Under the pieces are notes generated by a model. The model worked only from the letters and a program-made list of their open reading frames with translations. It did not search any database and was not told where the DNA came from. Both the position numbers and the translations under genes were made by a program. A stretch of 63,230 nt of DNA, the filler included. It is 13 parts of 13 records of this genome, joined end to end, with 100 filler letters (N's around TTAATTAATTAA, not from the genome) between each part and the next. Parts side by side here need not be neighbours in the genome. Positions count along the whole stretch, not along the records: positions 41,779 to 44,127 come from SRR11831585_996; 12 more parts are not named here. One strand, written 5' to 3'. Every line of letters begins with the position of its first letter. Position 1 is the first letter of the stretch. Below, piece by piece: positions 29,921 to 53,987 of this stretch.

Positions 29921-29927
29921 AAACGCC

Positions 29928-30287: not shown

Positions 30288-31395
<1,108 letters not shown>

Positions 31396-31556: not shown

Positions 31557-31561
31557 AATGC

Positions 31562-32813: not shown

Positions 32814-32818
32814 GGCGT

Positions 32819-32847
32819 AAAAAAAGCGGGGATTCCCCGCTTTTTTG
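32819..32847. terminator. Bidirectional terminator between slyX and slyD
   Basis: AAAAAAAGCGGGGATTCCCCGCTTTTTT. Confidence 0.9.
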
Positions 32848-32861
32848 TCACTTTTTCGGTA

Positions 32862-33452
32862 TTAGTGGCAACCGCAACCGCCGTTGCCTTTACCGCCACA
32901 GCAGCCTTCGCCACCGTGTTCATGACCGTGATCGTGGCCATGACCGCCGCAGCAACCGTCGTGGTCGTGATCGTGGTGGTGATCGTGCGCGCCGTGAACG
33001 TGACCATGAGCCAGTTCTTCTTCAGTCGCTTCGCGAATCGCCACAACTTCAACGTTGAATTTCAGGTTCTGACCGGCCAGCATGTGGTTACCATCAACCA
33101 CGACGTGATCGTCTTCAACCGCAGTGATTTCAACCGGTACCGGACCCTGGTCGGTTTCAGCCAGGAAACGCATACCTACCTGCAGTTCATCAACGCCCAT
33201 AAATACGTCTTTAGGAACACGTTGCACCAGGTTTTCGTCGTACTGACCGTAAGCGTCGTTCGCGCCAACAGCGACATCAAATTTGTCGCCAACTTCATGA
33301 CCTTCCAGCGCCGTTTCCAGGCCAGAGATCAGGGAACCGTGACCATGCAGGTAGTCCAGCGGCGCACTCACCGGAGACTCATCAACCAACACACCGTCTT
33401 CTGTACGTACCTGATAGGCCAGGCTGACCACCAGGTCTTTTGCTACTTTCAT
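32862..33452 (-). CDS. slyD: FKBP-type PPIase / metallochaperone SlyD
   Basis: 196 aa with His/Cys-rich tail. Confidence 0.98.
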   Translation of the reverse strand: MKVAKDLVVSLAYQVRTEDGVLVDESPVSAPLDYLHGHGSLISGLETALEGHEVGDKFDVAVGANDAYGQYDENLVQRVPKDVFMGVDELQVGMRFLAETDQGPVPVEITAVEDDHVVVDGNHMLAGQNLKFNVEVVAIREATEEELAHGHVHGAHDHHHDHDHDGCCGGHGHDHGHEHGGEGCCGGKGNGGCGCH

Positions 33453-33546
33453 GATATCTCCTGAGCATGGGAAGAATAGTGGCGCAGATTGTAGCGGAAT
33501 TCTGCAGCCGTGTACTCACTAGCTTAAAAAAACTCGGCGCATATCG

Positions 33547-33747
33547 CTAGTCCGGATGAAAAATCCCGATCACTTGCTCATCTTTGCGAACGTGATCGCG
33601 GGCTTCTTTGTCTGCTTCTCGCATCTGATGTCCGCACTTAACACATTCAACAATATCAATATTATTTTCGCGCCACATCGCCATTGAATCCTGCGCCTGA
33701 CAGGCCGGGCATTTTGCGCCCGCAATAAAACGTTTTCGGATTGCCAT
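33547..33747 (-). CDS. yheV: Zn-ribbon protein YheV
   Basis: KRFIAGAKCPAC...ECVKCG; 66 aa. Confidence 0.93.
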   Translation of the reverse strand: MAIRKRFIAGAKCPACQAQDSMAMWRENNIDIVECVKCGHQMREADKEARDHVRKDEQVIGIFHPD

Positions 33748-33756
33748 CTTTACCCT

Positions 33757-35114
33757 CTACTCAAATTCATCCCAGCCGTCCAGCTGGCGTCGTTCTTGTT
33801 GCATTTCACGCTGGAAAATCTCTTCCAGTTCGCGTCGGGCTTCCCTGGCGCGAGAAATTTGTACGGTATCGGCATGCATTGGGATGAGCTCTCGCAGCAT
33901 CCGCATATCCAGGCGGCGAAAATGCAGTTGCGCTCGCTGTGCCTGATGCGGATGCATGCCAAGCGTGACCAGCGTCTTGCGCCCCAGCTCTAACGCACTG
34001 GAGAATGTTTCACGGGAAAACTGCGTCACCCCTGCCTGTAATAACTCATGCGCTTCCACACGTCCGCGCGCTCGCGCAAGAATATGCAAATGCGGAAAGT
34101 GCTGTTGGCATATTTCCACCAGCTTCATGGTGTCTTCCGGCTCGTTACAGGTAATGACGATAGACTCAGCGGCCTCTGCACCCGCAGAACGTAAAAGATC
34201 GACCTGCGTGGCGTCGCCGTAATAAACTTTGTAGCCGTATTTACGCATCAGGTTAACGGCGCTGATATCCCGCTCCAGCACGGTAATGCGCATTTTATTT
34301 GCCATCAGCAAACGACCAATCACCTGACCAAAACGCCCGAAGCCCACGACAATGACCTGGGGTTTATCATCGTTGACCCACGGTTTTTCGTCTTCTTCTT
34401 CCGGTCCGTTAAACTGGCGGGATAGCCATTTATCCACCAGCTTCATCAGCAACGGCGTGGTCATCATGGAAAGCGTCACCGTCACCAGCAACAACGCCAT
34501 CTGGTCGCCCTGGAATAAGCGTTGTGAAGAAGCGGTAGAAAAGAGGACAAAGGCAAACTCACCACCCTGACTCAACACGCCAGCAAACTGCATCCGCTCT
34601 GAGCTACGCACGCCATACAATCGCGCCAGCAGATACAGCACGAGAATTTTCACCGCCACCAGCACAACCACGCTTATCACTACCCACAACAGATGGGTAT
34701 AAAGCACCCCGAGGTTGAGTGACATGCCGACAGAGATAAAGAACAAACCGAGCAGCAAGCCTTTGAAGGGATCGATAGCCGTTTCCAGTTCATGGCGATA
34801 TTCACTTTCCGCCAGCAGCACGCCCGCAATAAATGTACCGAGCGCCATCGACAGCCCCAGCGCATCCATAAACAATGCGGAACCCAACACCAGCAGCAGC
34901 GTCGCGGCGGTGAACACTTCCCGCACGCCAGAAGCTGCAATAAAGCGGAATACCGGACGCAGTAAATAGCGCCCACCAATCAGCATGCCGACAAACGCCA
35001 GCACCTTCATGCCGACCTTCATCCAGTCGAAATGTTCGTCTGCCGACCCCGCCAACAACGGCACTAACGCCAGTGCTGGGATTACTGCCAGATCCTGAAA
35101 CAGCAGAACCGAAA
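33757..35114 (-). CDS. kefB: Glutathione-gated K+ efflux protein KefB (5' partial)
   Basis: [11 protein letters not shown] loop and KTN domain GFGRFG. Confidence 0.95.
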
Positions 35115-35214
35115 NNNNNNNNNNNNNNNNNNNNNNNNNNNNNNNNNNNNNNNNNNNNTTAATTAATTAANNNNNNNNNNNNNNNNNNNNNNNNNNNNNN
35201 NNNNNNNNNNNNNN

Positions 35215-35242
35215 GGCCTGATAAGCGTAGCGCATCAGGCAA
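35215..35242. repeat. REP element at contig start
   Basis: GGCCTGATAAGCGTAGCGCATCAGGCAA. Confidence 0.85.
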
Positions 35243-35281
35243 TTAACCCCACCTTCTCCATGTGGAGAGGGTGGGATTGGA

Positions 35282-37195
35282 TTACTTACGACCTGCCAGC
35301 AGTTCCAGCACTTCATCCACGCTGGTGGTGTGTGCCAGACGCTCGATGACGGACTCATCATCCAGTGCATTGGTCAGGCTGGTGATAACCTGAATGTGCT
35401 CGTTGTTACGGGCAGCAATACCAATCACCAGACGGGCAATGTCATCTTCTTCTTCACCGAAGCGCACGCCTTCCGGGTACTGGCAGAACACGACGCCCGT
35501 TTTCAGTACGCGATCTTTCGCTTCAACCGTACCGTGTGGCACCGCGATAGACTCACCCAGATAAGTCGGGGTCAGTTTTTCACGATCCAGCATCGCCTGA
35601 ACGTATTCCGGCTCAACGTAACCGCCTTTCACCAGCTGCTCGCCAGCAAAACGAATCGCTTCTTCTTTGGTTGCCGCTTTGCGACCGAGGAAGATGTTCT
35701 CCGCGCCTAGCTTGAACAGGTTAGCACTGGAATCGTCAAAGCTGTCTTTCAGGCTGTCTTTTACTTTCTCTTCGTTTGCCGTGTGGCGTTGGGCAGCAAC
35801 CAGACGTTCGGTCAGGCTGGTGTACAGGCCGCTGTCGAGGAAGTTGGTCAGCGAAATATGCTGTGCCTGCGGAACCTGGCGCATAGCGCGTTCGGTCAGG
35901 TCACGGTGAGTGATGACGAGGTCCACATCTGGCGGCAGGTTGTTGATCGCGCTGTTAGTAACAGAAATCTGCGACAGACCTGCATCCTGAATTTTCTTAC
36001 GCAGAACGCCTGCGCCCATCGCACTGGAACCCATACCGGCGTCACAGGCAACGATGATTTTACGTACGTGGCTCAGGTCGTTAGTCACATCGCCAGCAGA
36101 CAGCGGAGATGCGCCTTTAGACTCAGCTTTCATGTCCTGCATACGACGAGTTGCTGCTTCAATATCATCTTCTTCTTTCACTTTGCTGGTTTTCAGCAAA
36201 ATAGCAGAGACAACGAAGGAGACAGCCATCGCCGCACACACACCCGCGATGTTAGCGAAGTAAGCACCTTTTGGTGTCATCGCCAGTACAGCAAGGATAG
36301 AACCCGGAGATGCCGGAGAAACCAGACCACCGCCCAGGATAGTCAGCGTGAACACGCCAGTCATACCGCCGAGGATGACTGCGAGGATCAGACGCGGATT
36401 CATCAGCACATACGGGAAGTAGATTTCGTGGATACCCCCCAGGAAGTGGATGATTGCCGCACCGCCCGCAGACTGTTTAGCGCTACCACGACCAAAGAAC
36501 ATGTACGCCAGCAGCACGCCCATACCTGGACCTGGGTTAGCTTCAATCAGGAAGAAGATTGATTTACCCAGTTCATGGGACTGCTGAATACCCAGCGGCG
36601 AGAAGATACCGTGGTTAATGGCGTTGTTGAGGAACAGGATTTTCGCCGGTTCAACAAAGATAGACGCCAGCGGCAGCATGTCATGGACAACCATGAAGTT
36701 AACGCCCGCAGCCAGCATTTTGGACAGGGCTTCAACAATCGGGCCAATGCCGAGGAATGCCAGAATAGCGAGGATCATCCCGATGATGCCTGCGGAGAAG
36801 TTATTCACCAGCATCTCAAAACCGGATTTGATCTTACCGTCTACCCAGCGGTCGAAGTGCTTAATGCACCAGCCGCCCAGCGGACCTGCAATCATAGAAC
36901 CGAGGAACATCGGCATGTCTGCGCCGACGATAACGCCCATGGTGGTGATGGCACCGACTACGCCGCCACGTTCGCCGCCTACCAGCTTACCACCGGTATA
37001 ACCGATCAGCAGCGGCAGGAGATAAGTGATCATCGGCCCGACCAGCTTCGCCAGCGTCTCGTTCGGTAACCACCCTGTTGGAATAAATAACGCGGTGATG
37101 ATACCCCACGCGATAAACGCGCCGATATTTGGCATCACCATGTTGCTGAGGAAACGACCAAAGCTTTGCACTTTGATCTTAATATCGGATGACAT
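35282..37195 (-). CDS. mtlA: PTS mannitol EIICBA
   Basis: GGIHEIYF, ACDAGMGSS, AVPHG; 637 aa. Confidence 0.98.
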   Translation of the reverse strand: MSSDIKIKVQSFGRFLSNMVMPNIGAFIAWGIITALFIPTGWLPNETLAKLVGPMITYLLPLLIGYTGGKLVGGERGGVVGAITTMGVIVGADMPMFLGSMIAGPLGGWCIKHFDRWVDGKIKSGFEMLVNNFSAGIIGMILAILAFLGIGPIVEALSKMLAAGVNFMVVHDMLPLASIFVEPAKILFLNNAINHGIFSPLGIQQSHELGKSIFFLIEANPGPGMGVLLAYMFFGRGSAKQSAGGAAIIHFLGGIHEIYFPYVLMNPRLILAVILGGMTGVFTLTILGGGLVSPASPGSILAVLAMTPKGAYFANIAGVCAAMAVSFVVSAILLKTSKVKEEDDIEAATRRMQDMKAESKGASPLSAGDVTNDLSHVRKIIVACDAGMGSSAMGAGVLRKKIQDAGLSQISVTNSAINNLPPDVDLVITHRDLTERAMRQVPQAQHISLTNFLDSGLYTSLTERLVAAQRHTANEEKVKDSLKDSFDDSSANLFKLGAENIFLGRKAATKEEAIRFAGEQLVKGGYVEPEYVQAMLDREKLTPTYLGESIAVPHGTVEAKDRVLKTGVVFCQYPEGVRFGEEEDDIARLVIGIAARNNEHIQVITSLTNALDDESVIERLAHTTSVDEVLELLAGRK

Positions 37196-37300
37196 AAAAA
37201 CACCCCTTCTTATGTTTGCTGTCGCGCAGGCTGGAAGCCCGAGGTTTTTTGTTAATGTGGCGGCAGAGGTAGCCGGACCTTGTAGATACTGCGAAATCTG

Positions 37301-37558
37301 GCACTGAATCGGTTAACTGTCCAGTCGACGGCCTTTTGTGTGATATCAATCACATAAATATAGGGGGTAGAGAGGTAATTGACGTGACGTTCATCACAAA
37401 ACGCTTGTGTAAAAAAGCAACAAGGCGGCGATTTTCGCTAAAAATGGCATTTAAATGTGAGTAGTGTCACATTTTTGTTTTGATGGTTTGTTGAATCTTT
37501 GTGATCTGAATCACAAGATATTTTCTTACGGCGTTCACCTGATGTGATCTACAGCATG
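37301..37558 (-). promoter_or_regulatory. mtlA promoter with clustered CRP sites and a Cra-like site
   Basis: TGTGA-N6-TCACA at 37339, 37456 and 37500; CGTGA-N6-TCACA at 37383; half site at 37543; CTGAATCGGTTAA near 37304. Confidence 0.85.
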
Positions 37559-37731
37559 TTATGCCTTCGTCATACAATCGTTATGTAACTAAGCAACTCA
37601 TCACCTCTAAAAATTATTCTTTGGTGTTATGGCGAGAATCGCGAACCCGGATTATTGTCAAAATATCAGCCTGACTCCCTTCTGGCTGCCAGCCCAAAAA
37701 CAACACTGATAAACGTGAATCCGAGGCAGAT

Positions 37732-38094
37732 ATGTTTCTAAACTATTTCGCGTTGGGAGTGCTGATCTTCGTCTTTCTGGTGATTTTTTATGGAATCATC
37801 GCGATACATGACATCCCTTATCTGATTGCCAAAAAGCGCAACCATCCCCATGCCGACGCTATTCATACGGCGGGCTGGGTGAGCCTGTTTACTCTGCATG
37901 TTATCTGGCCGTTTCTGTGGATCTGGGCGACGCTCTATCAACCGGAGCGTGGCTGGGGTATGCAGTCACATGTTGCGTCGCAGGAGAAAGCGACTGACCC
38001 GGAAATCGCCGCACTTTCTGACCGAATTTCCCGGCTGGAGCATCAACTCGCCGCCGAGAAAAAGACTGACTATTCCACGTTCCCGGAGATCTAA
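37732..38094 (+). CDS. yibI: Membrane protein YibI (DUF3302)
   Basis: 120 aa, [13 protein letters not shown]. Confidence 0.93.
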
Positions 38095-38096
38095 TT

Positions 38097-39233
38097 ATGG
38101 ATCTATTGATTGTTTTAACTTACGTGGCGCTGGCGTGGGCGGTCTTTAAAATCTTCCGCATTCCGGTAAATCAGTGGACGCTGGCGACGGCGGCGCTGGG
38201 AGGCGTGTTTCTGGTGAGTGGTTTGATTTTGTTGATGAACTACAACCACCCTTACACTTTTACCGCGCAAAAGGCAGTGATAGCGATCCCTATCACGCCA
38301 CAGGTGACGGGAATTGTTACTGAAGTCACTGACAAGAATAATCAGCTTATTCAAAAGGGCGAGGTGCTTTTTAAGCTCGACCCGGTTCGTTACCAGGCGC
38401 GAGTTGACAGACTTCAGGCTGACCTGATGACGGCGACGCATAATATAAAGACGCTGCGTGCGCAGCTCACTGAAGCGCAGGCCAACACCACCCAGGTTTC
38501 AGCGGAGCGCGACCGTCTGTTTAAAAATTATCAACGTTACTTGAAAGGCAGCCAGGCGGCGGTGAATCCGTTCTCGGAACGTGACATCGACGATGCGCGG
38601 CAAAATTTCCTCGCGCAGGATGCGCTGGTGAAAGGCTCGGTGGCGGAGCAGGCGCAGATCCAGAGCCAGCTCGACAGTATGGTTAACGGCGAGCAATCGC
38701 AGATTGTGAGCTTAAGAGCGCAACTTACTGAAGCAAAATATAACCTTGAGCAGACTGTCATTCGCGCGCCGAGCAATGGCTACGTTACTCAGGTACTGAT
38801 CCGCCCAGGTACATACGCAGCTGCCTTGCCGCTGCGTCCGGTGATGGTCTTCATCCCCGAGCAAAAACGGCAAATTGTCGCCCAATTTCGGCAAAACTCG
38901 CTGTTACGTCTGAAACCTGGCGATGATGCGGAAGTGGTGTTTAACGCGCTACCTGGGCAGGTGTTTCACGGCAAACTGACTAGTATTTTACCTGTCGTGC
39001 CAGGCGGTTCTTATCAGGCGCAGGGGGTATTGCAATCATTAACGGTCGTGCCCGGCACGGACGGTGTGCTGGGAACCATTGAACTGGACCCTAACGATGA
39101 TATCGATGCCTTACCCGACGGCATCTACGCCCAGGTGGCGGTTTACTCCGACCATTTCAGCCATGTTTCGGTGATGCGGAAAGTGCTGCTAAGAATGACC
39201 AGCTGGATGCATTATCTTTATTTGGATCATTGA
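38097..39233 (+). CDS. yibH: HlyD-family membrane fusion protein YibH
   Basis: 378 aa, [10 protein letters not shown] and IRAPSNG motifs. Confidence 0.93.
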
Positions 39234-39654
39234 GGGGGAGGGGGGAGGATTATGGAACTTTGCTCCTTGTAAGGACTAATTATTTTTGCATATTACTTCA
39301 TTAGCTTCGATGATTTTTCTTTAATATTCATTATGTTAATAAGTTCTGGATGAGTGTGCTCTCATTGGATTTTTTATCCGTCTTGTTCTGCCGCAGGATG
39401 AGACTATACATCGTCGAGATCGCAATGATGATATGAGTTGTTCCTCCTGCGACGGCTCTAANNNNNNNNNNNNNNNNNNNNNNNNNNNNNNNNNNNNNNN
39501 NNNNNTTAATTAATTAANNNNNNNNNNNNNNNNNNNNNNNNNNNNNNNNNNNNNNNNNNNNGGTCACCCCATTACCACCCAGATGGTGTACGATATATTG
39601 GAAAGTGCGACACTCGGGGTAGACACGAGACAATGCACACGCACACTAACATAC

Positions 39655-40318
39655 CTGCTGATCAGGTGCCATCAGATCGAGAAACTCGGACGCCGCGTGA
39701 TGGTTGTACCCCGGTTTCAAGCCCAGAAGAGTAGACCAATTCACGCAGGCATCAATCTGCAGACAACATGATTAGTCTCTCAACATCAATACATGGCACA
39801 CGTACGTAGTTTTCGCGAAGATCCCACTCAAACAGCGCATCCGATTGCAACTGCAATGCATAGGGCAAGCGCTGCGCCATCCATATTTTCTCTTCCTGCC
39901 AAGTTCGCTGCCGTCGCGAACGAGAAGACGGGATCGTGAGCGGAAAGGAAACATCGCAGGTGTTTGTGGAATTCTCTGATTGCTCTGCATTCGTGATTGG
40001 TGGAATCGCACACGGCATGGCCGGAGATATCATGACCACGCGATGGTGAACGTCGGCCACAGGCGAAACAGAGATGTTCCAGAGGGAGCCTTCGCGTTGC
40101 AAGTGGATTACGGAGCAGTCACTCCCGACATCTGACAGTGCAGTTGTGGACAGGGCATGAAGCACATCCGAGGCCAGCTGGTTCTCCACATCAACGAACG
40201 CGCCGAGCGTATCAGCGTGTGCTGCTTTGTTCGCCCACACGACACCCCATGCGGCGTCAACAACGATCGTGGGAAGCGGGGCATGCTCGAACGCCAACAC
40301 CGCAAGATCCCGCTCCAT
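39655..40318 (-). CDS. Eukaryotic tandem-PAS-domain protein, 3' partial; exons 40318-39806 and 39756-39655
   Basis: FEHAPLPTIVVD...VVWANKAA (PAS 1) and DALFEWDLRENY/IDACVNWSTLLG...EFLDLMAPDQ (PAS 2) joined in frame by a 49-nt GTACGT..CTAAT..CAG intron; start codon uncertain. Confidence 0.7.
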
Positions 40319-41328
40319 ACGCGTTTGGCACACCCAGTGAGGCGCGGTGGCTGCGACAACAACAACACAGATAACGAATCCACGCAAGATGCGACGCTCA
40401 CGCCCCCGAGCAAACCACCGCATAGGAAAGAGAGACGCGGTAAGTGGGTTCATTGTGTGACACGTCATCGTATGTGTGTGTTCGTGTTTGCAAAGACAGA
40501 TCACCACCGATTCGTACGCACATAACAGGCGCCGTGGCAGCGATTGAGGCGGTGAAACCACCAGAACCATATTGAAAACGCAGAAACCGCAGAGCAGCTC
40601 TCTGGCTGACGGCTTGCATTGGTAAAGTTCGTAGCTGTCGAGTTGGCGCGGCGTTGATTGGCGAAAAGGAAAACCGAAAGTGATGCAGCGACTTGGGGGG
40701 GATCGCAGGCTTCGAGACGTGAACAGATGAGACGCAATACTGTGCAAGCTGCTCATGTGAGGGAGACTCACAGTCACTCACAGTCGTGATCCAGTTACAC
40801 TCCAACCTCGAGTCTTCAGTCTTGACAATGACATGCGTGGATTCACGTAGGCTCGAAACAAAGCCCCGATCCTTCAACGTCATATCGTCGGCTCGCTCTA
40901 GCAAGGTGCCCACGGCTAACGGCTGCAAATCAAATGGTACACGCTCGTCTGTCCGAAGCCTCGTACATCGACTGCCTCATGGAGCTTCCAAGGTTGGTTA
41001 TCAGGACACGTTCAATGTTGATAGTACAACAAAACAGCAACAAAAGCAGTGCAGTGTGTTTTCAAGTATGTTCTCAGCCTGTGCATCGGTCGTGTCGTCC
41101 AAGTACGAAATCTCAGCGACTACGATTTCGAAGGAGGCGACCCCCGTAGAACACATGCACTCACACTGTCACACCGTTAATATACACCAATATACATCCA
41201 CACGCACACGCATAATAGATCGACACATTTCGATATATCAAAATAGGTTCCTGTTCAAGAGTCACCTGTGCAAGTCTGTGGTGATCTCATAAGTAGTTAG
41301 ATAGCTCTGTTGAAAAGAGTGATTCGAC

Positions 41329-41615
41329 ATGAACTCCGCCCGTGTGTCCTTGCTGCTCGTGTGCGCCTGTTTGGTGCTGATCGTGCATGGACTGAATCCC
41401 GGTGTCCACCTTGCTCCGTTGGTTAGCGGCGGAAATCCGACAGTGGATGAGGTTCATGTATGTGTTTTGTTAAGATGCTGCCTGCAACTGCGAAAATATG
41501 ATTGCTGAAGTGTGCATCTGCTATGGGAGTAGTGCCTAATGTCGGTGCTTCTGTAGGATCTGGGCGCGACGTGGGTCAGGGTCGAATTTATCGATGGAAG
41601 CGACGCGTTCAGCTT
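41329..41615 (+). CDS. Eukaryotic secreted glycoside-hydrolase-like protein, 3' partial; exons 41329-41457 and 41557-41615
   Basis: Signal peptide MNSARVSLLLVCACLVLIVHG; splicing a 99-nt GTATGT..CTAAT..TAG intron gives EVH/DLGATWVRVEF. Confidence 0.6.
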
Positions 41616-42472
41616 GTATGTCTCTCCTGTTTATCTTCATCTGTTATCACGTTTCTGGCATCGTGTGCGGGGGAAACGNNNNNNNNNNNNNNNNNNNNNN
41701 NNNNNNNNNNNNNNNNNNNNNNTTAATTAATTAANNNNNNNNNNNNNNNNNNNNNNNNNNNNNNNNNNNNNNNNNNNNCCCCGCTGCGGAGGCGCCGCCA
41801 CAGATTGATATGGGGGCGTTCTTTAAATTCTAGTAGCGCATGGTGTTGGGTTTCTGGTTGTGGGTGTGTGTTTTACTAGATGAGGTGTTATTTGTAAATG
41901 TACTAAGATGAGTACCCTTTGGTTTGGTACATTGATTTGCTTATGTGTACGCTTGTGTTTGAGTGTGTCTCTACTGTTTGTGTGTCGTTGGTGTTGTTTT
42001 GTTATGCGGGTATGTATGTATGTATCGATAAACAGGATCATAAATAGCGCTGTAATCGTGATTAGATTGTCGACTGCAACACCTACTCTGCGGACAAAAA
42101 AAACAGATACACAGCACGATTAACATAAAATAGACCCAAACCACGTGCCGCGGATCGTCATGAAAAACAAACTTCACCTTCCAAGGCATCCCCCTCGCAC
42201 AGAAATGCATGCATCACGCATACGCCCGGAGCACGACAAACAACAAAATCAAATAAACAACAATAATAAGTGGTATACAAATCGGCGATAAGCAGGACAA
42301 ACGTCCCATAAATATACGCACCATCCGCAGAAGGAGCGATCATACAAACCACACAACAACACCACACCTCCATCACCACCAACAACCACCACGACAGCTT
42401 AGTATCCCTCTCCTGCGTCACACAAAAACACCATTCGGCATAACAGCGCGGTCTAGATGATAGGGTGCGTTA

Positions 42473-43846
42473 TCACGAGCAGCAGCCACCCTTAGTGGTT
42501 TCGATGGAGTCCTCGGCCCCGGTCAAAATCACCGAGTCGCTACGCTGCTGCGGGGATGCGACCTGGGAAGAGGGGCGCAGTTTCGACTGCTGCAGGACAG
42601 AGAAGAACGGGGGAAAGTCAGTGAAACGCATGAGGAAACAGCACAACAAACCATCACAATCATAACACTGCAAGGCATCACAAGCAAGCAAAACACGATC
42701 GCTGTATCAGCAAGAAACAAGAAACACGCTCCGCCCAGCAAAACGGGGCGCATCGATGTAATCCCAGTAATCGCACGCACGCGCACCAGTATCGCCAAAC
42801 AAAACAACAAAAAAGCAGCCATCACGCACAACACACACACATACGCGACATATTCCACAAACAACAGCGCACATACCACCAGACGGTTGCCGATATACTC
42901 AAACACTTCCTGTACGTTGACACCGGTCTTGGCACTCGTCTCATAGTATACGCCGTTCACCGAACTGGCGAACTGCGTCGCTTCCGACTGCTCGACCCGA
43001 CGTTGCTTGATGTGAGACTCGATCAGATCCGCTGCGCACAAGACGGACAGATAAGCACACCAAGTGAGAGAAAGATGCATGAAGAAACAGCAAGATACCA
43101 TAAAAAACACAACACTCCAGAAAGCTTCACTATCTTTATGTTACCGCAGAAGCAGTCGCACGCGTGGACCCACATACACTTTGTACCGACCACCACCACA
43201 ATAGCGTCCTTGTCACAGTGCTCCAAGCGATCAGCCTGTCGCTGCACCTCCATAAAGGAGGTTCGGTCCGAAATATGTACGCCGCAGTTAAGGAGTGCAC
43301 ATGCGATACAGAGTGAAACAGATAGCGCACAGAGCACTCATAGTGAAGACCACCACGCACCACACTGTGCAACAGAAACCCAAGAAATACACAGGAAACA
43401 CAATGTTAGAAGGAAAGGATATCAAAACATAGCAAAGCTGCGCCTGATCCGCGTAGGTACAAAGTTGATAAGGAATCGTATTGCTCTACCGTTCATATCA
43501 TTAACGAAGAACTGCTATGAACATTTGTATCACAGGGTCACGCACCTTGTCCTGCGGTATCCTGCGATAGCAAATGAGGTTAGAACAGTAGAAGTGACAC
43601 ACACAGACAGCCACATACCCAGATGCCTAAAATGAATCCCTGGCATGTTTTGGTCCCATAAGAAACACCCAGAGTCTACACAGCGTTACAACTGTGATCA
43701 TCATCTAGGATCAGTCATACCGCAGCGGTCGTTCCAAACTCGTCACGAAGATATCGCGTTAGCAATGAGGTCTTACCGGCACTCGTGGGGCCAAGAACGA
43801 TCACTTTAACATCCACTTTCTTACCCGATCTACCCGATGTAGACAT
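42473..43846 (-). CDS. Rab GTPase (Rab24/Rab20-like), complete, 210 aa; exons 43846-43721, 43675-43619, 43561-43546, 43485-43423, 43276-43178, 43031-42877, 42589-42473
   Basis: Spliced ORF of 633 nt contains G1 GPTSAGKTS, G2 T, G3 WDTAGQE, G4 TKSD, G5 ETSAK and the GGCCS prenylation tail. Confidence 0.93.
43277..43422 (-). other. U12-type (minor spliceosome) AT-AC intron, 146 nt
   Basis: Donor ATATCCTTT, branch point CTCCTTAAC (43295-43287), TAC acceptor 10 nt later; removal restores LLCF-D-ISDRTSF. Confidence 0.92.
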
Positions 43847-44227
43847 TATCGAAAGCAAGGATGGATCGGATTTTAGTTCCACGCACGCGACAATGCGAAC
43901 CCAGCCAAAAGAATTCAGGTCATATATATGCAAACTGAGGCAAGCGGAGCCTCGCCTTCAGATTCGTGTCAGACTCTGTAACTCTGACAGTGCCACGACA
44001 CCATGTTCGAATGCTCGTTTGCTCGACCCAGGATCTCGCTTGCTGCGCACGAGTTCCGCAACAGAACCCGCGGTGTTCGTGTTCCTCTGCACGTGTGTTG
44101 CGCACGACTGTGCGTAAATCCTAGCCANNNNNNNNNNNNNNNNNNNNNNNNNNNNNNNNNNNNNNNNNNNNTTAATTAATTAANNNNNNNNNNNNNNNNN
44201 NNNNNNNNNNNNNNNNNNNNNNNNNNN

Positions 44228-44676
44228 CGGGGATCTGCCAGATCTACACAGAAATTGTCACACACATCGTTGCGAACACCACAGCGCAGAGCGGCATACT
44301 CGAACAGTGCTATCCTCAGAGCCGGATGCAATGATATTCTCATTGAAAGGGTGGAAATCGAAATCAAGCACAGGGCGAGTATGGCCTAAATTCAGTTGCA
44401 TGAGCATCATTCCCAGATACAGTTTCATTACGGAATACATATACACATACCGAGGAACAAAGGCTGATCTACGGGCAGGCGACCAGTCGCTGAATGGGGT
44501 ACCACAGCGAATGCTCCACCTCCGGCAGTCTTCCATGAAACGGCGAAGTACGTGGTATTGGCCTTGATAAAGTTCCCGTCCCACGCGTTTTCAGTCGCAC
44601 GGACATTATCGTACGAGAAATCACGCTTGAAAGCAGTGCCAAAAACGTGTCGGAACTTGGATGTGCGCTGGGTCAT
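44228..44676 (-). CDS. Coronin (WD40 actin-binding protein), 3' partial; exons 44676-44451, 44385-44300, 44243-44228
   Basis: SKFRHVFG, GGGAFAV and [34 protein letters not shown] after removing two GT-AG introns. Confidence 0.93.
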
Positions 44677-44944
44677 TGTTCAGTGAGTTTGCCCCGCTAT
44701 GCAACGAAGCAGAAACAGTGAAAGATAAGTGTGTTTGCGCTGCCTGTCGGCATGTATGTGCCGAGCTCGGGTCCCTAGTCATCGTGAAGCGTCAAGACGC
44801 AATCTAGCAGCTGGGAGTACGTCGACACGCAACAAGATCCTCGGGATTTTTCGGTGCCTTCAACTCTGTAGAATTTCCTAGAAAGTTGCCGCAACATTGG
44901 TCGCATTTGTCATCTTTGGTACGAAAGTGTTGCAAGGAACGCAA

Positions 44945-45839
44945 ATGAGCGCTAAATCAGGAGCAACATACGACTATTTATTGGTTCTGGATTTTGAAGC
45001 CACTTGTCTCGATGGTGTTCGAATTTCTCCGCAGGAGATTATCGAGTTCCCCACGGTTTTATTAGATGTTCACGAGAACAAAGTTATCGACGAGTTTCGT
45101 ACCTTCGTTCGACCTGTAGCTCATCCGAAGCTCAGCGCATTCTGCACCAGTTTGACCGGAATCACGCAAGTATGACCTGCTTCGTTCCTTTAAATCGTAT
45201 CACTAATGCTCTTTGCTTAGGACCAGGTTGGTGACGCCCCATGTTTCGCGGAGGCGTTAGATCTCTACATGAAGTGGTTCGAGAAGCACGAGCTCGACCG
45301 CAAATCTTTCATGTTTGTTACATGTGGAGACTGGTGCGTTTCCTCTACTGCAGCCCGTTCAGCACGATCATGTACTCACAAGCAACGTTGTTTTGTGTGC
45401 GTGCTGTAGGGACTTGAAAACTGCCTTCCCTGATCAGTGTAAGCAGAGTGGTGAACGGCCGCCAGAGATATTCTCACGCTGGATCAACATCAAGCATGTT
45501 GCTGCGGATTTTTACAAGAAGCGAACCGTGCACGGCATGACCGGACTGCTGCAGCTAGCGCATCTGCAACTGCAGGGTACGCGTATACGTGTGTTGCATG
45601 GTATGTGCATCAGTGCCGCATATAGTATTAATATGTACATTCTTGTGCTCATATCATGCATGTTCATTTGTTCATTGCACACCCATCTGATGTGTCTTCT
45701 TCTCTGCGTGTTTGCAGGGCGGCATCATAGCGGCCTCGACGACTGTCGCAACATCGCGCGCTGTGCACAGGCCATGATCGCCGCCGGTTGCGTGTTCTCA
45801 GGCTCACACGTGCAGCCCCGAAGAAGGAAAGCGCAGTAG
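44945..45839 (+). CDS. ERI1/ERI3-family DEDDh 3'-5' exonuclease, complete, 208 aa; exons 44945-45169, 45221-45333, 45410-45576, 45718-45839
   Basis: LVLDFEATC, EIIEFP, LTGITQ, VTCGDWDL and GRHHSGLDDC in a 627-nt spliced ORF. Confidence 0.92.
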
Positions 45840-46619
45840 CATACACATATGCATGAAATCACAACATTGCCTGCCGCATATCCATGTGCCAGAGTGTAGC
45901 TACAGTGCGATGTATATGTATGTGTGCCGTACCCGTACGGGGTGTGTCTAAGTGGGCATGCATGTACCGTGAGTGTTGCGGTTCTCTCGCTCCCTTCGCA
46001 CGTGAGACCGCTGACATGTACCTCACACGTAAGTGGAGTTGCGGCGCCGGCTTATACGTATGGTAGTCACTGTTATGCATGCCCGCGTATGCGTGAGTCC
46101 TTTCTCTGGGCTTTTTAAGAGAGGAGTAGAGTATCGAAGCAGGAAAAGTATCTAAAAGTGTCTCAGATCGATCAACTCACATATCAAGTCTCCTGCTCTC
46201 ATGTGGGTGCATGAACTGTCCGTGCCTGTCACACGGACAGACAGCACATAGCTAGAGCTTCCGCATATCGCATAAGTACTCTCGGCGTAAATATATCCGA
46301 ACCTGAAATCTGACTGATTCTGACACAAATCGAAGGTGGCTCAGAGCGCTGCTGCGGGAGAAGATGGGAGAGCGAGAGCTAGGTATTTTCNNNNNNNNNN
46401 NNNNNNNNNNNNNNNNNNNNNNNNNNNNNNNNNNTTAATTAATTAANNNNNNNNNNNNNNNNNNNNNNNNNNNNNNNNNNNNNNNNNNNNGGAGGGGGGG
46501 ATCGTATACGTACATTTCGGCAAAATGAAGACGACACGCACACACGTACGCATCACGCACATACGGAGATACACGAACACCACGCGACACAGTTCCGGGC
46601 CCGAGTTGTAAACACGTAC

Positions 46620-48881
46620 TGCTGGTGTAGCACACACTGCCGATCGCCTCACACGCCTGCAAACGAACAGAATCCAAGCGGGAATGCAGGAGTTGCACAA
46701 GAGGGGGTATGCCACGGCCTTGTCGCACCGCATTGCGGTTCAACACTGCGTTGGGGGACAAACACAGACACGTGGTTGAGTATGCACACAGTTAAAAACT
46801 GGGTGGTGGTACGGCGTACAGGGGCAATAGACACAGAAGCAGGAACTCATGGACGCGGAGAAAGAGAGAGACACGAAGAAACGTTCAAAAGCACAAAGTA
46901 AGCCTCGACAGTAGAAGGACAGAAAAAGAGTGCAGATCGTACCATCACACAGCTATGCTCCACACGAAAAGAACTTCACGGAGGAAACTCGCATAAAGGC
47001 ACGTACGATTGTGTACACACAAATTCTTGACAGCGCGGGCCGCCTGACTCGCAATAAGCTCATTCTTCGAACGCAACAGTGTCAGCAGATGAGCAAAGCC
47101 GTGTGCATCGCGAAAGGCGTTACGGTTCTCCTCTGTTGTGAGAGAGAGCACAAAACATAAGAAACGAAAGTGTAGGAGACTATTATAGGAGAATGTGGGG
47201 AATGGGTAACGCATAAAGAGCGAGACCAGAAGATGCACTGATGCTGTTCCGTGAGATTGATTCGTATATTGCCTTGGTTAGTGTATGCGCGGCAGCGGGA
47301 ACGCGAAATAAACGAGAACAGAAACGACATTCAAACGAATAGAATACGCAAACACGAATAGGGGCCATTACCGCAGACAGCATGTTGATGTGTGTATGGT
47401 GACGCATGATAAACCAGCAAAACGCACAAAGAAAACACAAAAACACTGAACAAGTACGGTTATCACTCACGGCATGTTGATGTGTGCACGAAGAGTGGCC
47501 GGTGCCGCGTGATAAATGAGATGTTTGCAAAGAACACACCAACGAAAACACACTGAACGGTACCATTATCGCAGACGGCGTTAGCGAGCAGCCACAGAGT
47601 TTGTTCCTGCACGTCCGCGTCCGAGTGCTGCAGCAGCTGTGTGATGAGCGTGATCCCGTTGAACTTGGCGATGTCTTGTCGCACATGATCTGCAATTCGG
47701 CAAACACACAAACACACACAGACATATACACACGCCAGCGTGGGCACGGTCGCACACAGCGCAAATAGTTAGAATAACGGCGCATACGAATCGGGCAAGG
47801 TGGCGGACGAAAATGTTAGCAGAAAAGAATTGACTCGCAATTTGAATAGATACCAGCCATAGGTGTGTGCGGTTGAATGGTGTATGTGAGGGGGGAGCTG
47901 TCCGTGATGTTACTGCACAGCGTACCGTTGTGATGAGCTGCGTTCGCCAGTGCCCACAGGGCCTGCTTCTGCACACGCATATCCGGGTGTTGGGCGCATT
48001 GCAATAACACCGGGACGGCTCCTGCGCGACGCAGCGCTTGCCTGTTCTTATCTGTAATAACGTACTCCGTTACTTAGAACGCATCCCGACTGACATACAC
48101 ACACGCACACACATGCACATACATACACATACACGCACACATATACATACACACCTCGACACCCGCAGCACCGTTTGTGACACAAACCATCACATTTCGG
48201 CTCTGTATTTTTAGCAATCCGCAGCGATAAAACAACAAACACAAAAGTACATAACGAGGCAACCATGCTATGAACGTACCCGAACAAGCAAGATTCTTCA
48301 TCAACCAGCAACAGAGCGCCAGCAACTGCACCGATTCCGTGCTGCAGATGACTGACAGAATTGCTGCAATACCACCATGTTCCCGAAAAGAATTGCGATA
48401 TACCACTGCATGACACACAGGGAAACACATGGAAACGATGAGATCCGTGAGGTGTACATGAACCGAAACTTGCGTATGCGATTGTTTACACTGGTATGTA
48501 CGTGTACGTTCAGATAGAGCGATATGCATACATATATGTAAGTATGTTTTCTACAACATGTTCGTTGGAGTTGTAATGCACACAAACACACGAAATGACG
48601 ACCATACAGTCAGAACATCAGCGTGAAGTATGAGTGCGTAGGAAGCGCAATGCAGAACGGAAACACAACGCCACGAACAAATATATGCGTCTAATGAAGA
48701 GGAGTACCCACGCAAGTAAGTCTGTTCCTGCTTGTTTCAAGTATGGGGTAAACGGATTAGTACGTACAGTCTTCATCGCGTGCAGTCAAATTAATGAGTG
48801 CCTTGCAGCATGCGAGTTGTGTTCGTTCATCCGATGCGGAGAGCGCCTTAATGAGGGACGGTACGTCCGTGGTGTTGATCA
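46620..48881 (-). CDS. Armadillo-repeat protein, internal fragment; exons 48881-48768, 48405-48280, 48051-47926, 47689-47564, 47132-47007, 46745-46620
   Basis: Each exon reads as an ARM unit, e.g. NRQALRRAGAVPVLLQCAQHPDMRVQKQALWALANAA; all introns are GTAC..CAG, phase 1. Confidence 0.9.
48090..48160. repeat. Degenerate (CA)n/(TG)n microsatellite inside an ARM-gene intron
   Basis: CATACACACACGCACACACATGCACATACATACAC...; similar tracts at 48901-48926 and 60570-60625. Confidence 0.85.
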
Positions 48882-49026
48882 CTGCAAAGACACACGACGT
48901 ACACACATACACACACACACACACACNNNNNNNNNNNNNNNNNNNNNNNNNNNNNNNNNNNNNNNNNNNNTTAATTAATTAANNNNNNNNNNNNNNNNNN
49001 NNNNNNNNNNNNNNNNNNNNNNNNNN

Positions 49027-49606
49027 CCGGCAGCTCTTGTGCATCCACGGCGTCCTCATATTCCACCATCTCGTACTGGAACTCGAAATCCTCGGCGCTG
49101 CGAACACCCACGGTCATAGGGCCTACGGGCTCGGCGGCAATGGCGTCGCCGTTCTCATCAAACACCCACCGCTTCACGTCTGATGAGGCGATCAGGGGCA
49201 GCTCCTCCATCGGCTCGTCGACAACAACGGGAGCCTCCGCAAAGACAGCCTCGGTGGCATTGCTGATGGGGGTTTCCTCCACGGCAGCGGGCGACACTTC
49301 CTCCGGGGCAGCATCGGCTTCCTGAGGAACGGGATCGGCAGATTCTGCAATCACAGTAGGCTCAGGTTCTTCGACGACAGTCTTCTTGGTGCGCGTCCGA
49401 GCTAATGATAGGTATAAGATTCATGCTTCGATGCTACTCGCAGGATACATACGCGCAGCTTTCTTGGCAGCAACCTTGGGTGCTTCCTCCACGATCTCAT
49501 TGGTTACGTCGGCCAGCACATCCTTCTGGCGCCGAGTCGATCGACGAGTAGACAGGGTAGAGACAGGATCTTCCGCAACCACCGCTTGCTTTCGTGTGTT
49601 TACCAT
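49027..49606 (-). CDS. Eukaryotic acidic low-complexity protein with a D-box-like motif, 3' partial; exons 49606-49453 and 49401-49027
   Basis: MVNTRK start; a 51-nt GTATGT..TAG intron joins the two ORF-track fragments in frame; KDVLADVTN motif. Confidence 0.7.
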
Positions 49607-49712
49607 AGCTATTTGTTAAATCGCAACTGTTTCACGCGCTCTGTTTCTTCAGCAATGAATGTAGACTCGACCGGCCTCAACCACGATCGATTCGTTTACA
49701 AATTTTCATCAA

Positions 49713-49728
49713 TTCAAATTTCCCGCGC
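49713..49728 (-). promoter_or_regulatory. Composite E2F + CHR-like element
   Basis: Minus strand GCGCGGGAAATTTGAA (TTTCCCGC abutting TTTGAA), about 110 nt upstream of the ATG at 49606; second E2F-like TTTGGCGC at 49878-49885. Confidence 0.5.
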
Positions 49729-49926
49729 TCCTCTACTTCAGCTGAATTGTTGCTGCACAGCGGCGTGCTGAAACGAGCTCAACGTCAGATGCCCATAAAA
49801 GGCAGGCGACTGACAAAGAACCCACTGCGCTTGCAAAGTAGCGGTTCTGAATGCTCAGCACATTTCATTCTGCGTGCTTTGGCGCACCCGCGTTTCGTCC
49901 CCTTCGTACTCCGTTTCAGATCATCG

Positions 49927-50506
49927 ATGGACGTCCTCGCGAGTGAGCTAGAGCTTTTCGAGACCTACGATTTGGAGTCGACATGGTGTGACCCAGATGT
50001 CTACACGTTGTCTGTTTTCGAGGATGACCCCCAATTTGGCTCGTATGTTACTGTTTCCTATCCTACGCGCGTGTTCTCACTCTCATCATGCGCGCAGCAA
50101 TGTCTTCTACAACTTGGAAGAAGAAGCCTACGTTTCGTCCCTGGCTGGGATGTACGAGCAGCAGGCTGCCTTGGCCGAGGAAGGCAATAATCTGGAGGTT
50201 GTCGAGGTTGTCCAGGTTGTGGTCGCGGATGCCATGCCAACGTGCATCTCCCCTGCCTCGCTCATATCTTCGAGCAGCTCGCCGTCTTCGGTTCTGGGCA
50301 AGCGCCACGCTTTCCGGGACGATGTCGACGCCAGCGAGAATGAGCTCTGCGTGGTGCCCAGCACGCCTGTCCGCACGAAGAAATCTAGTCCCCGCAAGAC
50401 CGCGTTCTCGAAACGATCGCGTCGTGATGAGCTTTTCCATCGAGAAGAGCGCATCACGGTGACGGTGGTTGCGGAAGACGAAGACGAAGACGTGGATGTT
50501 TGCTGA
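49927..50506 (+). CDS. Eukaryotic hypothetical protein, 174 aa, acidic and probably disordered; exons 49927-50042 and 50098-50506
   Basis: A 55-nt GTATGT..CAG intron joins MDVLASEL...FGS to NVFYNLEEE...EDEDEDVDVC* in frame (525 nt). Confidence 0.7.
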
Positions 50507-50833
50507 GATTTGCCTTGTCAATTTGTTTGAAGGACACAAGTACGCGACATCATAGTTGCGATTTGTGTCACTTGAATTGCTCTTTAGATTAGATGTGCAT
50601 TTTTGCACACTGGTTTTGCGTTTCGCAACATTTGTTATTGGCGTCGTTTTTCAAGTAGACGCAGTCGGATCGTATTTATGGGGTTTTACATATTGCTATT
50701 TATCAGAGATTATTTATAAACTGAACAGTATACAATAACTCACTGCAGCCCCTCCTGCCGTCCGTGTCCTCTCTCTCTCTCTTTCGGCACGTGTGTTTTT
50801 CACGTCCCCCGTGCGCGCATCTGTGCACACCTT

Positions 50834-50965
50834 TCATGTGCGGTTGAGCCGGACCAAGTCGCCGCCCGCTGCGTGAAGCACAGTCACCTCGTTGGAGCCG
50901 AGCAGGTCGCGCATGTGAAACGCAGTGCCAAGCTTGCTACGGCGCAGCTTTCGATTCTCCAAATC
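50834..50965 (-). CDS. Probable last exon of an unidentified eukaryotic gene
   Basis: GC-rich codon-like stretch DLENRKLRRSKLGTAFHMRDLLG...RLNRT* after a TG-rich intron-like tract; acceptor uncertain. Confidence 0.4.
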   Translation of the reverse strand, partial: DLENRKLRRSKLGTAFHMRDLLGSNEVTVLHAAGGDLVRLNRT

Positions 50966-51239
50966 CTTCACATAGTGTGCACACATACGGTTACAGAGGG
51001 ACGCCACGAAGGATCCAACGGAGAACAAGAGTAGGCGACAGACCTCCACACACACGCAAAGACAGTACAGCACACGCACACACATGCATACGGATAAACA
51101 CGTACACACACCCATACGATTATCACCCCCCCTCCAACANNNNNNNNNNNNNNNNNNNNNNNNNNNNNNNNNNNNNNNNNNNNTTAATTAATTAANNNNN
51201 NNNNNNNNNNNNNNNNNNNNNNNNNNNNNNNNNNNNNNN

Positions 51240-51631
51240 AAATGAAGGTCGATGAAATGGTCACCGTGCGCGATATCACTCTGACCAGCACCTGTGAACA
51301 CCATTTTGTTACCATCGATGGCAAAGCGACGGTGGCCTATATCCCGAAAGATTCGGTGATCGGTCTGTCAAAAATTAACCGCATTGTGCAGTTCTTTGCC
51401 CAGCGTCCGCAGGTGCAGGAACGTCTGACGCAGCAAATTCTTATTGCGCTACAAACGCTGCTGGGCACCAATAACGTGGCTGTCTCGATCGACGCGGTGC
51501 ATTACTGCGTGAAGGCGCGTGGCATCCGCGATGCAACCAGTGCCACGACAACGACCTCTCTTGGTGGATTGTTCAAATCCAGTCAGAATACGCGCCACGA
51601 GTTTCTGCGCGCTGTGCGTCATCACAACTGA
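51240..51631 (+). CDS. folE: GTP cyclohydrolase I (5' partial)
   Basis: [28 protein letters not shown]. Confidence 0.97.
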
Positions 51632-51647
51632 TTAAAAGGCAGGAACC

Positions 51648-52805
51648 ATGGAGCGCAACGTCACGCTCGATTTTGTTCGCGGCGTCGCCATTCTGGGGAT
51701 CCTGCTATTAAACATCAGCGCCTTTGGGCTACCAAAGGCGGCTTATCTCAATCCCGCCTGGTACGGTGCTATTACGCCGCGGGATGCATGGACTTGGGCA
51801 TTTCTTGATCTCATCGGCCAGGTGAAATTCCTCACGCTTTTTGCGCTACTGTTTGGTGCGGGCCTGCAAATGTTGCTGCCCCGTGGCAGACGCTGGATCC
51901 AGTCGCGGTTAACGCTGTTAGTCTTGTTGGGCTTTATTCACGGTTTATTGTTCTGGGACGGCGATATTTTGCTGGCTTACGGGCTGGTGGGCTTAATCTG
52001 CTGGCGGCTGGTGCGCGATGCGCCATCGGTAAAAAGCCTGTTTAATACAGGCGTCATGCTTTATCTGGTGGGGCTTGGCGTTTTGCTGTTATTGGGGCTG
52101 ATTTCCGACAGCCAGACCAGCCGCGCCTGGACGCCGGATGCATCGGCTATTTTGTATGAAAAATACTGGAAGCTTCACGGCGGCGTTGAAGCGATCAGTA
52201 ATCGTGCCGATGGTGTTGGCAACAGTTTACTGGCACTGGGCGCACAGTATGGCTGGCAACTGGCAGGGATGATGCTCATTGGTGCGGCGCTGATGCGCAG
52301 CGGCTGGCTGAAAGGGCAGTTCAGCTTACGTCACTATCGTCGTACTGGTTTTGTGCTGGTGGCGATTGGGGTGACCATTAACCTTCCTGCCATCGCCCTG
52401 CAATGGCAGCTGGACTGGGCGTATCGCTGGTGTGCCTTCTTACTTCAAATGCCGCGGGAACTGAGTGCGCCGTTTCAGGCGATTGGCTATGCGTCGCTGT
52501 TTTATGGCTTCTGGCCGCAATTGAGCCGCTTTAAGCTGGTGCTTGCGATCGCCTGCGTCGGACGGATGGCGCTGACCAACTATCTATTGCAAACGCTGAT
52601 TTGTACCACGCTTTTTTACCACCTCGGTTTGTTTATGCATTTTGACCGCCTGGAGCTGCTGGCGTTTGTTATTCCGGTATGGCTGGCGAATATCCTCTTC
52701 TCTGTTATCTGGCTGCGTTACTTCCGCCAGGGGCCGGTGGAATGGCTCTGGCGTCAGTTAACTTTGCGTGCTGCCGGACCGGCAATATCTAAAACATCAA
52801 GATAA
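51648..52805 (+). CDS. yeiB: DUF418 membrane protein YeiB
   Basis: LDFVRGVAILGI, GRMALTNY, QGPVEWLWR. Confidence 0.95.
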   Translation: MERNVTLDFVRGVAILGILLLNISAFGLPKAAYLNPAWYGAITPRDAWTWAFLDLIGQVKFLTLFALLFGAGLQMLLPRGRRWIQSRLTLLVLLGFIHGLLFWDGDILLAYGLVGLICWRLVRDAPSVKSLFNTGVMLYLVGLGVLLLLGLISDSQTSRAWTPDASAILYEKYWKLHGGVEAISNRADGVGNSLLALGAQYGWQLAGMMLIGAALMRSGWLKGQFSLRHYRRTGFVLVAIGVTINLPAIALQWQLDWAYRWCAFLLQMPRELSAPFQAIGYASLFYGFWPQLSRFKLVLAIACVGRMALTNYLLQTLICTTLFYHLGLFMHFDRLELLAFVIPVWLANILFSVIWLRYFRQGPVEWLWRQLTLRAAGPAISKTSR

Positions 52806-52835
52806 CGATCTGGATCACATTCGTTAACAAAACGG

Positions 52836-52870
52836 CTGTAACCGTTTCCATTGCTGTGACTCGATTCACG
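52836..52870 (+). promoter_or_regulatory. galS operator and CRP site
   Basis: CTGTAACCGTTTCCAT (gal operator-like) and TGTGA-N6-TCACG. Confidence 0.7.
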
Positions 52871-52946
52871 AAGTCCTGTATTCAGTGCTGACAAAATAGC
52901 CGCCAGCAAGCAGTCATTTACTGCAATCTCATAACAGGTAGTGAAT

Positions 52947-53987
52947 ATGATCACCATTCGTGATGTAGCGCGTCAGGCTGGCGTCTCTGTGGCAACGGTT
53001 TCCCGGGTGCTCAATAACAGCACGCTGGTCAGTGCCGACACGCGTGAAGCAGTAATGAAAGCCGTGAGTGAGCTGGATTATCGGCCAAACGCCAATGCCC
53101 AGGCGCTGGCAACTCAGGTTAGCGACACCATTGGCGTGGTGGTGATGGACGTTTCTGATGCGTTTTTCGGCGCGCTGGTAAAAGCGGTGGATCTGGTCGC
53201 TCAGCAGCATCAGAAATACGTGCTAATCGGCAATAGCTATCATGAAGCGGAAAAAGAGCGTCACGCCATTGAGGTGTTAATTCGCCAGCGTTGTAATGCG
53301 TTGATTGTTCACTCAAAAGCATTGAGTGACGATGAACTGGCGCAATTTATGGATAACATTCCCGGTATGGTGTTAATCAACCGCGTTGTGCCGGGGTACG
53401 CCCATCGTTGCGTTTGCCTGGATAATCTCAGCGGTGCCCGAATGGCGACGCGCATGTTGCTGAATAACGGTCATCAACGTATTGGTTATCTTTCTTCCAG
53501 CCACGGCATTGAAGATGACGCCATGCGTAAAGCAGGCTGGATGAGTGCGTTGAAAGAGCAGGATATTATTCCGCCGGAAAGCTGGATTGGCGCTGGTACG
53601 CCGGACATGCCGGGCGGTGAGGCGGCGATGGTTGAACTGCTGGGGCGCAATCTACAACTTACCGCTGTATTTGCTTATAACGACAATATGGCCGCTGGCG
53701 CACTGACAGCATTAAAAGATAATGGCATTGCGATTCCGTTACATCTCTCAATCATCGGTTTCGATGATATTCCCATCGCCCGTTACACCGACCCGCAATT
53801 AACGACCGTGCGTTATCCCATTGCTTCAATGGCGAAATTAGCCACCGAACTGGCCTTGCAGGGGGCAGCAGGCAATATTGATCCTCGTGCCAGCCACTGT
53901 TTTATGCCGACGTTAGTGCGTCGCCATTCTGTCGCAACACGCCAGAATGCGGCGGCGATCACTAACTCAACAAATCAGGCGATGTAA
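52947..53987 (+). CDS. galS: LacI-family isorepressor GalS
   Basis: [21 protein letters not shown]; 346 aa; upstream of mglB. Confidence 0.96.

Follow-up and report, generated by a model that had tools for sequence, protein, structure and literature searches.

The fourth intron of a Rab-like small GTPase gene is, in all likelihood, a genuine U12-type (minor-class) intron with AT-AC termini, as judged from its sequence. The gene lies on a non-bacterial contig of 2349 bases (41779-44127) within the window, the term used here for the whole stretch of 63,230 bases that was analysed. Joining the seven exons by their coordinates (Table 1) gives an open coding sequence of 633 nt, specifying a product of 210 amino acids followed by a stop codon. 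Pfam searches were carried out exon by exon, leaving aside exons 2 and 3, which fall below the minimum query size. Exon 1 matched the Ras family profile (PF00071) over positions 1-26 of 162 (21.8 bits, for a cut-off of 21.6) and exon 6 matched it over positions 118-158 (33.1 bits); searched singly, exons 4, 5 and 7 had no Pfam match at E values up to 1. The two Ras matches are collinear, and the full product aligns with Rab-like proteins. In the PDB, the best matches of exons 1 and 6 were Rab7, Rab6, Rab5, Rab22 and R-Ras; exons 4 and 5 found none at E values up to 10. The product ends in two cysteines and one further residue (a GGCCS tail), which we take to be the prenylation motif of the Rab type. 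Its G4 motif reads TKxD rather than NKxD, presumably a Rab24 trait, and the same is seen in the three homologues described below (the L001 product, P0021 and P0031). The best relatives bear no subfamily label. The "protist" host and the Rab24/Rab20 identity proposed in a preliminary description of this DNA are best regarded as plausible. With its open frame, Ras matches at the correct ends of the profile and C-terminal double cysteine, the gene is intact.

Table 1. Positions of the features discussed in the text. Coordinates are those of the window, except for the last line.
Feature	Position	Strand	Remarks
Gene for the Rab-like small GTPase, from start to stop codon	42473-43846	-	seven exons joined by coordinates, open and in frame
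Exon 1	43846-43721	-	
Exon 2	43675-43619	-	
Exon 3	43561-43546	-	micro-exon of 16 nt coding for the greater part of the G3 (switch II) motif; neighbouring introns GT-AG, 57 and 60 nt long
Exon 4	43485-43423	-	upstream of the AT-AC intron; last base is first base of an Asp codon
Exon 5	43276-43178	-	downstream of the AT-AC intron
Exon 6	43031-42877	-	
Exon 7	42589-42473	-	
Intron 1	43676-43720	-	GT-AG, 45 nt, phase 0; position common to L001 intron 1
Intron 2	43562-43618	-	GT-AG, 57 nt, phase 0; position common to L001 intron 2
Intron 3	43486-43545	-	GT-AG, 60 nt, phase 1; absent from L001
Intron 4	43277-43422	-	146 nt, phase 1, AT-AC termini; putative U12-type by sequence
5′ splice site of intron 4, ATATCCTTT	43414-43422	-	9/9 matches to RTATCCTTT
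Branch-point sequence of intron 4, TCCTTAAC	43287-43294	-	8/8 matches to consensus TCCTTRAY
Last ten bases of intron 4, after the branch-point sequence, TGCGGCGTAC	43277-43286	-	pyrimidine runs of at most 1 base; ends in AC
Intron 5	43032-43177	-	GT-AG, 146 nt, phase 1; position common to L001 intron 4
Intron 6	42590-42876	-	GT-AG, 287 nt, phase 0
Coronin gene, 5′ part	44228-46390	-	DUF1899 (E 4.6e-30), then WD40 repeat; split by introns
RNase_T-type exonuclease gene	44228-46390	+	E 1.2e-13
Armadillo-repeat protein, split gene	46491-48926	-	
HEAT-repeat protein, split gene	60527-63230	+	
Spacers, first six	8706-8805, 18072-18171, 26116-26215, 35115-35214, 39462-39561, 41679-41778		
Spacers, last six	44128-44227, 46391-46490, 48927-49026, 51140-51239, 57956-58055, 60427-60526		
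Stretches matching genome G001	1-8705, 8806-18071, 21569-26115, 26216-35114		
Stretches matching genome G001	35215-39461 (to 39234), 51240-57955, 58056-60426 (to 60319)		
Rab relative in L001	269-1038	+	metagenome contig (own coordinates); four GT-AG introns of 36-50 nt

On the minus strand, exon 4 ends in ...CTATGTTTTG and is followed by ATATCCTTTCC; at the other side, the intron (composition A19 C34 G34 T59) closes with CTCCTTAAC, TGCGGCGT and AC, after which exon 5 starts with ATATTTCGGACCGA. The donor consensus of U12-type introns is RTATCCTTT, also the form quoted in the preliminary description, and both the donor and the branch-point sequence agree with their consensus at every position. 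The two branch-site adenosines, 43289 and 43288, precede the final base of the intron by 12 and 11 nt, inside the 11-13 nt range given as the optimal distance between branch point and 3′ splice site in U12-type introns (excerpt of PMC3584512). The ten bases preceding the 3′ splice site contain no polypyrimidine tract; the same excerpt describes U12-type introns as being devoid of such a tract and either adenosine as a possible branch point (PMC3584512). Thus donor, branch site, spacing, lack of a tract and termini all bear out the initial proposal of a U12-type AT-AC intron in this Rab gene. Reading through past exon 4 does lead to a stop at the sixth codon (GAT ATC CTT TCC TTC TAA), as had been claimed, and the last 60 nt of the intron were confirmed, on the minus strand, to be free of AG: the intron has just two AGs, starting at its positions 57 and 85. 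Since the other five introns of the gene are all GT-AG, with different donors (GTATGA, GTATGT in three cases and GTGCGT), intron 4 is a true outlier and not the norm of the organism.

We consider it very unlikely that intron 4 belongs to a divergent AT-AC subclass that the major (U2-dependent) spliceosome processes. U12-type introns are not alone in having AT-AC ends (PMC3584512, in the part citing Wu and Krainer 1997), and no minor snRNA was detected in the DNA searched (the window at gathering scores, 39562-51139 also under lax conditions). However, the class of an intron is defined by its donor and branch-site sequences, not by its termini (PMC3584512, excerpt), and here both match the U12 consensus in full. 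Furthermore, 11-12 nt separate the branch site from the 3′ end, no pyrimidine tract is present, and the U2-type introns of the Rab gene look quite different.

All GT-AG, GC-AG and AT-AC pairs around the site that keep the frame open were collected (24 combinations: 1 GT-AG, 12 GC-AG and 11 AT-AC) and scored against an HMM of six homologues, namely five database proteins and the L001 product, itself a gene model built in this analysis. The 43422/43277 splice obtained the highest score of the 24 choices (221.4 bits), followed by an AT-AC pair bearing neither consensus motif (211.6 bits). The sole open GT-AG pair, 43428/43337, scored 191.5 bits and the highest GC-AG pair 188.3 bits, the latter among the best eight of the 24 choices. 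The product of the 43422/43277 splice aligns without a break across the exon 4/exon 5 junction with P0021, P0031 and the L001 product; support for the junction is drawn from these full-length alignments since exons 4, 5 and 7 have no Pfam match of their own. The junction peptide predicted at the outset is indeed present in the joined seven-exon product, and the frame continues through the junction to the GGCCS tail.

With one GT-AG and 12 GC-AG combinations open and in frame, the gene could in principle be spliced at 43428/43337 or at a GC-AG pair, the U12-like motifs being coincidental. This we find scarcely credible. The GT donor, GTTTTG, is unlike the other donors of the gene, and use of this pair inserts 18 mostly hydrophobic residues in the GTPase core at a cost of 30 bits against the homologues; with the GC-AG options, conserved residues of the core would be lost or exchanged. 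The GCACAG acceptor ending at 43365, previously put forward as a conceivable alternative, is used by 0 of the 24 in-frame open combinations, whether GT-AG, GC-AG or AT-AC. In addition, the L001 intron sits exactly at the AT-AC site, and chance rarely produces the two motifs together. In windows simulated from a first-order Markov model of the real one, a strict pair (ATATCCTTT and then TCCTTAAC, with 6-16 nt left to an AC) turned up once in 1000 cases, and a relaxed version of the motif pair in 71 of 1000. The real donor/branch pair is the sole one in the window and coincides exactly with the site at which an intron is required to keep the frame open.

The single motifs were also inspected throughout the window in a search for further minor introns. 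RTATCCTT alone was found 3 times, for 2.1 expected, hence it is not rare; TCCTTRAY has a single occurrence in the 13,882 non-bacterial bases, both strands considered. Two of the RTATCCTT sites were discarded as intron donors: the one at 2597 (minus strand) sits in a contig matching the nearest genome (G001) at 97-98%, and the one at 21392 (plus strand) in a stretch with long ORFs and no match to that genome. Allowing one mismatch in the donor gave three further sites, of which just one, at 61947 (plus strand), is followed by a branch-like sequence. This second candidate (donor GTCTCCTTT, with GCCTTAAC 10 nt before an AG, 469 nt downstream) was rejected on inspection: its donor is internal to a GT-AG intron of the ordinary kind, the presumed branch site reads as coding, and removal of the span would delete a HEAT-repeat exon. 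The relaxed motif search of the 13,882 non-bacterial bases thus left no second U12-type candidate. Six introns were verified in the Rab gene and two more were observed in the HEAT-repeat gene. Physarum polycephalum is a minor-intron-rich lineage; a comparably high density of minor introns, as suggested in the preliminary description, rests here on n = 1, an intron picked up by a survey that favours unusual features, and no density claim is possible. A share of about 0.1-0.5% of all introns would be ordinary, whereas one at the percent level would amount to an expansion.

Homologues of the product were found in databases and in metagenomes. Residues 6-185 align with protein P0021 (43.9% identity over 187 amino acids, E 1.3e-56); the closest named relative is P0031, a transcript product of Fabomonas tropica (41.6% identity), and a protein of Anaeramoeba flamelloides is 37.8% identical. 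An exhaustive protein search with exon 6 returned 46 matches, the best being P0001, a 122-residue fragment from a read assembly with 62% identity. The flanks of P0001 resemble translated intron sequence, which suggests that a closer relative of the organism, with the same exon boundaries, exists in public reads. Word-index searches against longer proteins, with exons 6 and 1 as queries, gave no match, nor did scans of genome contigs (an exact 30-mer, then alignment A1). Scanning metagenomes with exon 6 and its closest relative identified five loci, L001 to L005. L002 and L003 were rejected as orthologues, being other Rabs, about 31% identical, that match without introns; L004 and L005 were dismissed as relatives, the matches covering 19-21 residues at chance level.

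The remaining locus, L001, encodes the closest full-length relative (52.3% identity over 174 amino acids). All four of its introns coincide, in codon and phase, with introns of the window gene (introns 1, 2, 4 and 5), and the two proteins align without gaps over the four shared positions, the offset staying at four residues throughout. Intron positions in Rab genes are reported to be conserved and subfamily-specific (excerpt of PMC3504004); the shared positions therefore support both the orthology of the two genes and the exact placement of intron 4, and we take the L001 gene to be the orthologue of the window Rab. At the AT-AC site, L001 carries a GT-AG intron of 50 nt, which starts with GTATTCTGC, matches RTATCCTTT at 6 of 9 donor positions and has TTCTTAT 11 nt before the AG. 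From these signals it is best read as a U2-type intron. Since the L001 counterpart is GT-AG with 6/9 donor matches, it lends no support to a conserved U12 character of the site; the idea that it arose by conversion of a minor intron is speculative.

Two further explanations concern the state of the gene and of the contig. One is that intron 4 is a relic: minor splicing would have been lost, the 146 nt would be retained in the transcript and the gene would be dead or dying. Eukaryotes have indeed lost minor splicing on many occasions (PMC3584512 and PMC10639083, both in excerpt), but the seven exons are without exception open and conserved, their product reaches 221 bits in the comparison with its homologues, and a donor and a branch site without a single mismatch are not expected in the absence of selection. 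A relic is accordingly highly improbable. The other is an artefact of sequencing or assembly in a short, low-coverage contig. Although the contig has just 2349 bases and comes from a fragmented, mixed assembly, an error would have had to produce both consensus motifs in full and correctly spaced while keeping the frame, within flanking exons that are collinear with the homologues; we find this hardly conceivable.

The mixed nature of the assembly is apparent from the make-up of the window, in which spacers of 100 bases (44 N, TTAATTAATTAA, 44 N) separate 13 contigs measuring 2.1-9.3 kb. Because the contigs are chained by these spacers, adjacency in the window is uninformative on linkage. Seven contigs are bacterial (E. 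coli) and match the nearest genome, G001, at 97-99%. One of the seven, 26216-35114, was compared with E. coli genomes at large: it is 100% identical to E. coli strains including the laboratory strain J53 and is present in all of the 5426 complete E. coli genomes. The first 3.4 kb of an otherwise E. coli contig (18172-21568) has no match to G001 at E 1e-60; this stretch, with long ORFs of 721 (18255-20420) and 449 amino acids (20173-21522), is probably accessory bacterial DNA. At the end of another E. coli contig, Rfam identified the ES036 (CssrF) sRNA (60365-60407, minus strand, 56.7 bits).

The six non-bacterial contigs (39562-41678, 41779-44127, 44228-46390, 46491-48926, 49027-51139 and 60527-63230) have no match in G001, at a threshold of 1e-60 for five of them and of 1e-3 for the Rab contig, and the latter has no match in E. 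coli genomes. The Rab finding is thus on a short eukaryotic contig of an assembly that also contains E. coli DNA resembling that of laboratory strains. Split genes of eukaryotic type are recognisable on four of the six (Table 1); the ORFs tested from the other two, 39562-41678 and 49027-51139, had no Pfam match. Introns and spacers of contigs 46491-48926 and 60527-63230 are rich in TG/CA tracts, and a weak match to mir-297, far below the gathering score, was noted at 48104-48153.

Among the relatives of the coronin exon, the best are metagenome proteins, 71-72% identical, followed by proteins of Syncephalis (61%) and of Modicella and Rozella (57-59%). Rab24 is reported to have been lost in basal fungi (PMC3425129, excerpt), so that a fungal origin would be less likely if the GTPase is of the Rab24 type. 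No Blastocystis protein was found among the named Rab relatives (names being obtained for 6 of the 46 matches) or among the coronin relatives, and for this reason the organism is probably not Blastocystis. The best matches of the Rab exon (62%) and of the coronin exon (72%) all come from metagenome or read assemblies. A broader reading, in which the organism belongs to an unsampled lineage, its genome is perhaps rich in minor introns at the percent level seen in Physarum or Blastocystis, and the intron at this site was ancestrally of the minor class and became U2-type in the L001 lineage, appears unlikely to us.

Because an intact and conserved gene needs intron 4 removed, and because both motifs are free of mismatches, the organism very probably keeps a minor spliceosome, whose use at intron 4 we infer from the same signals. 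The steps would be those established for the U12-type class. U11 would pair with the donor ATATCCTTT and U12 with TCCTTAAC, leaving one of the two adenosines bulged; U4atac/U6atac.U5 would then take the place of U11. Cleavage at TTTTG|AT...AC|AT would give an mRNA in which ...TGTTTTG is joined to ATATTTCGG, restoring the codon for Asp and, with it, the conserved strand that follows switch II. Searches for the machinery itself gave no Rfam match to minor snRNAs in the window at gathering scores (the sole setting applied to 60527-63230), and none at E values up to 10 in 39562-51139, which comprises 11.6 kb of non-bacterial contigs; the lax search of this region returned weak mir-297, mir-3149 and sno_ZL1 matches on a TG-rich tract, far below gathering scores. 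Neither minor snRNAs nor minor-specific proteins were found in the approximately 14 kb of eukaryotic DNA, an amount too small to inform either way.

The intron has consequences for annotation and for comparative work. Gene callers restricted to GT-AG introns would mis-model the Rab gene, either reading through to the stop after six codons or adding the 18-residue insertion. The sharing of its position with a GT-AG intron in L001 provides, given further orthologues, a concrete case for the study of conversion between U12-type and U2-type introns. In a literature search, Rab24 did not occur together with "U12-type" or "minor intron" in any paper (supplementary gene lists being outside its scope). 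Minor introns have been surveyed in over 3000 genomes (PMC10639083, excerpt) and documented in all major eukaryotic groups, several protists included (PMC3584512, excerpt).

Intron 4 resembles the U12-type AT-AC introns of animals and plants, as portrayed in the excerpt of PMC3584512, in its conserved donor and branch site, its short distance from branch point to 3′ end, the lack of a pyrimidine tract, its AT-AC termini and its non-zero phase; vesicular transport, to which a Rab gene belongs, is a functional class noted there for such introns. Unlike these, it resides in a microbial eukaryote and is known from its sequence alone. AT-AC termini are shared with a U2-dependent group of introns (part of PMC3584512, citing Wu and Krainer 1997), which are without the U12-type donor and branch-site consensus that intron 4 has in full. 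Blastocystis offers the likeness of a microbial eukaryote with many, mostly AT-AC minor introns: 346 minor introns were reported in Blastocystis sp. ST1 by one study (PMC5608401, excerpt), and 196 of 253 are AT-AC in another (PMC10639083, excerpt). However, minor introns of Blastocystis average about 42 bp and about half are in phase 0, according to the portions of these sources consulted, whereas intron 4 has 146 nt and is in phase 1. Rhizophagus irregularis has 205 predicted minor introns (PMC10639083, excerpt), and a parallel with this species and with Physarum polycephalum would hold if one in about 25 introns were representative, n being 1 in the present case. Set against these systems, the Rab intron is a well-supported yet unremarkable member of a known intron class, one that would not surprise a specialist, and it contributes a further point to what is a patchy record of minor splicing in microbial eukaryotes.
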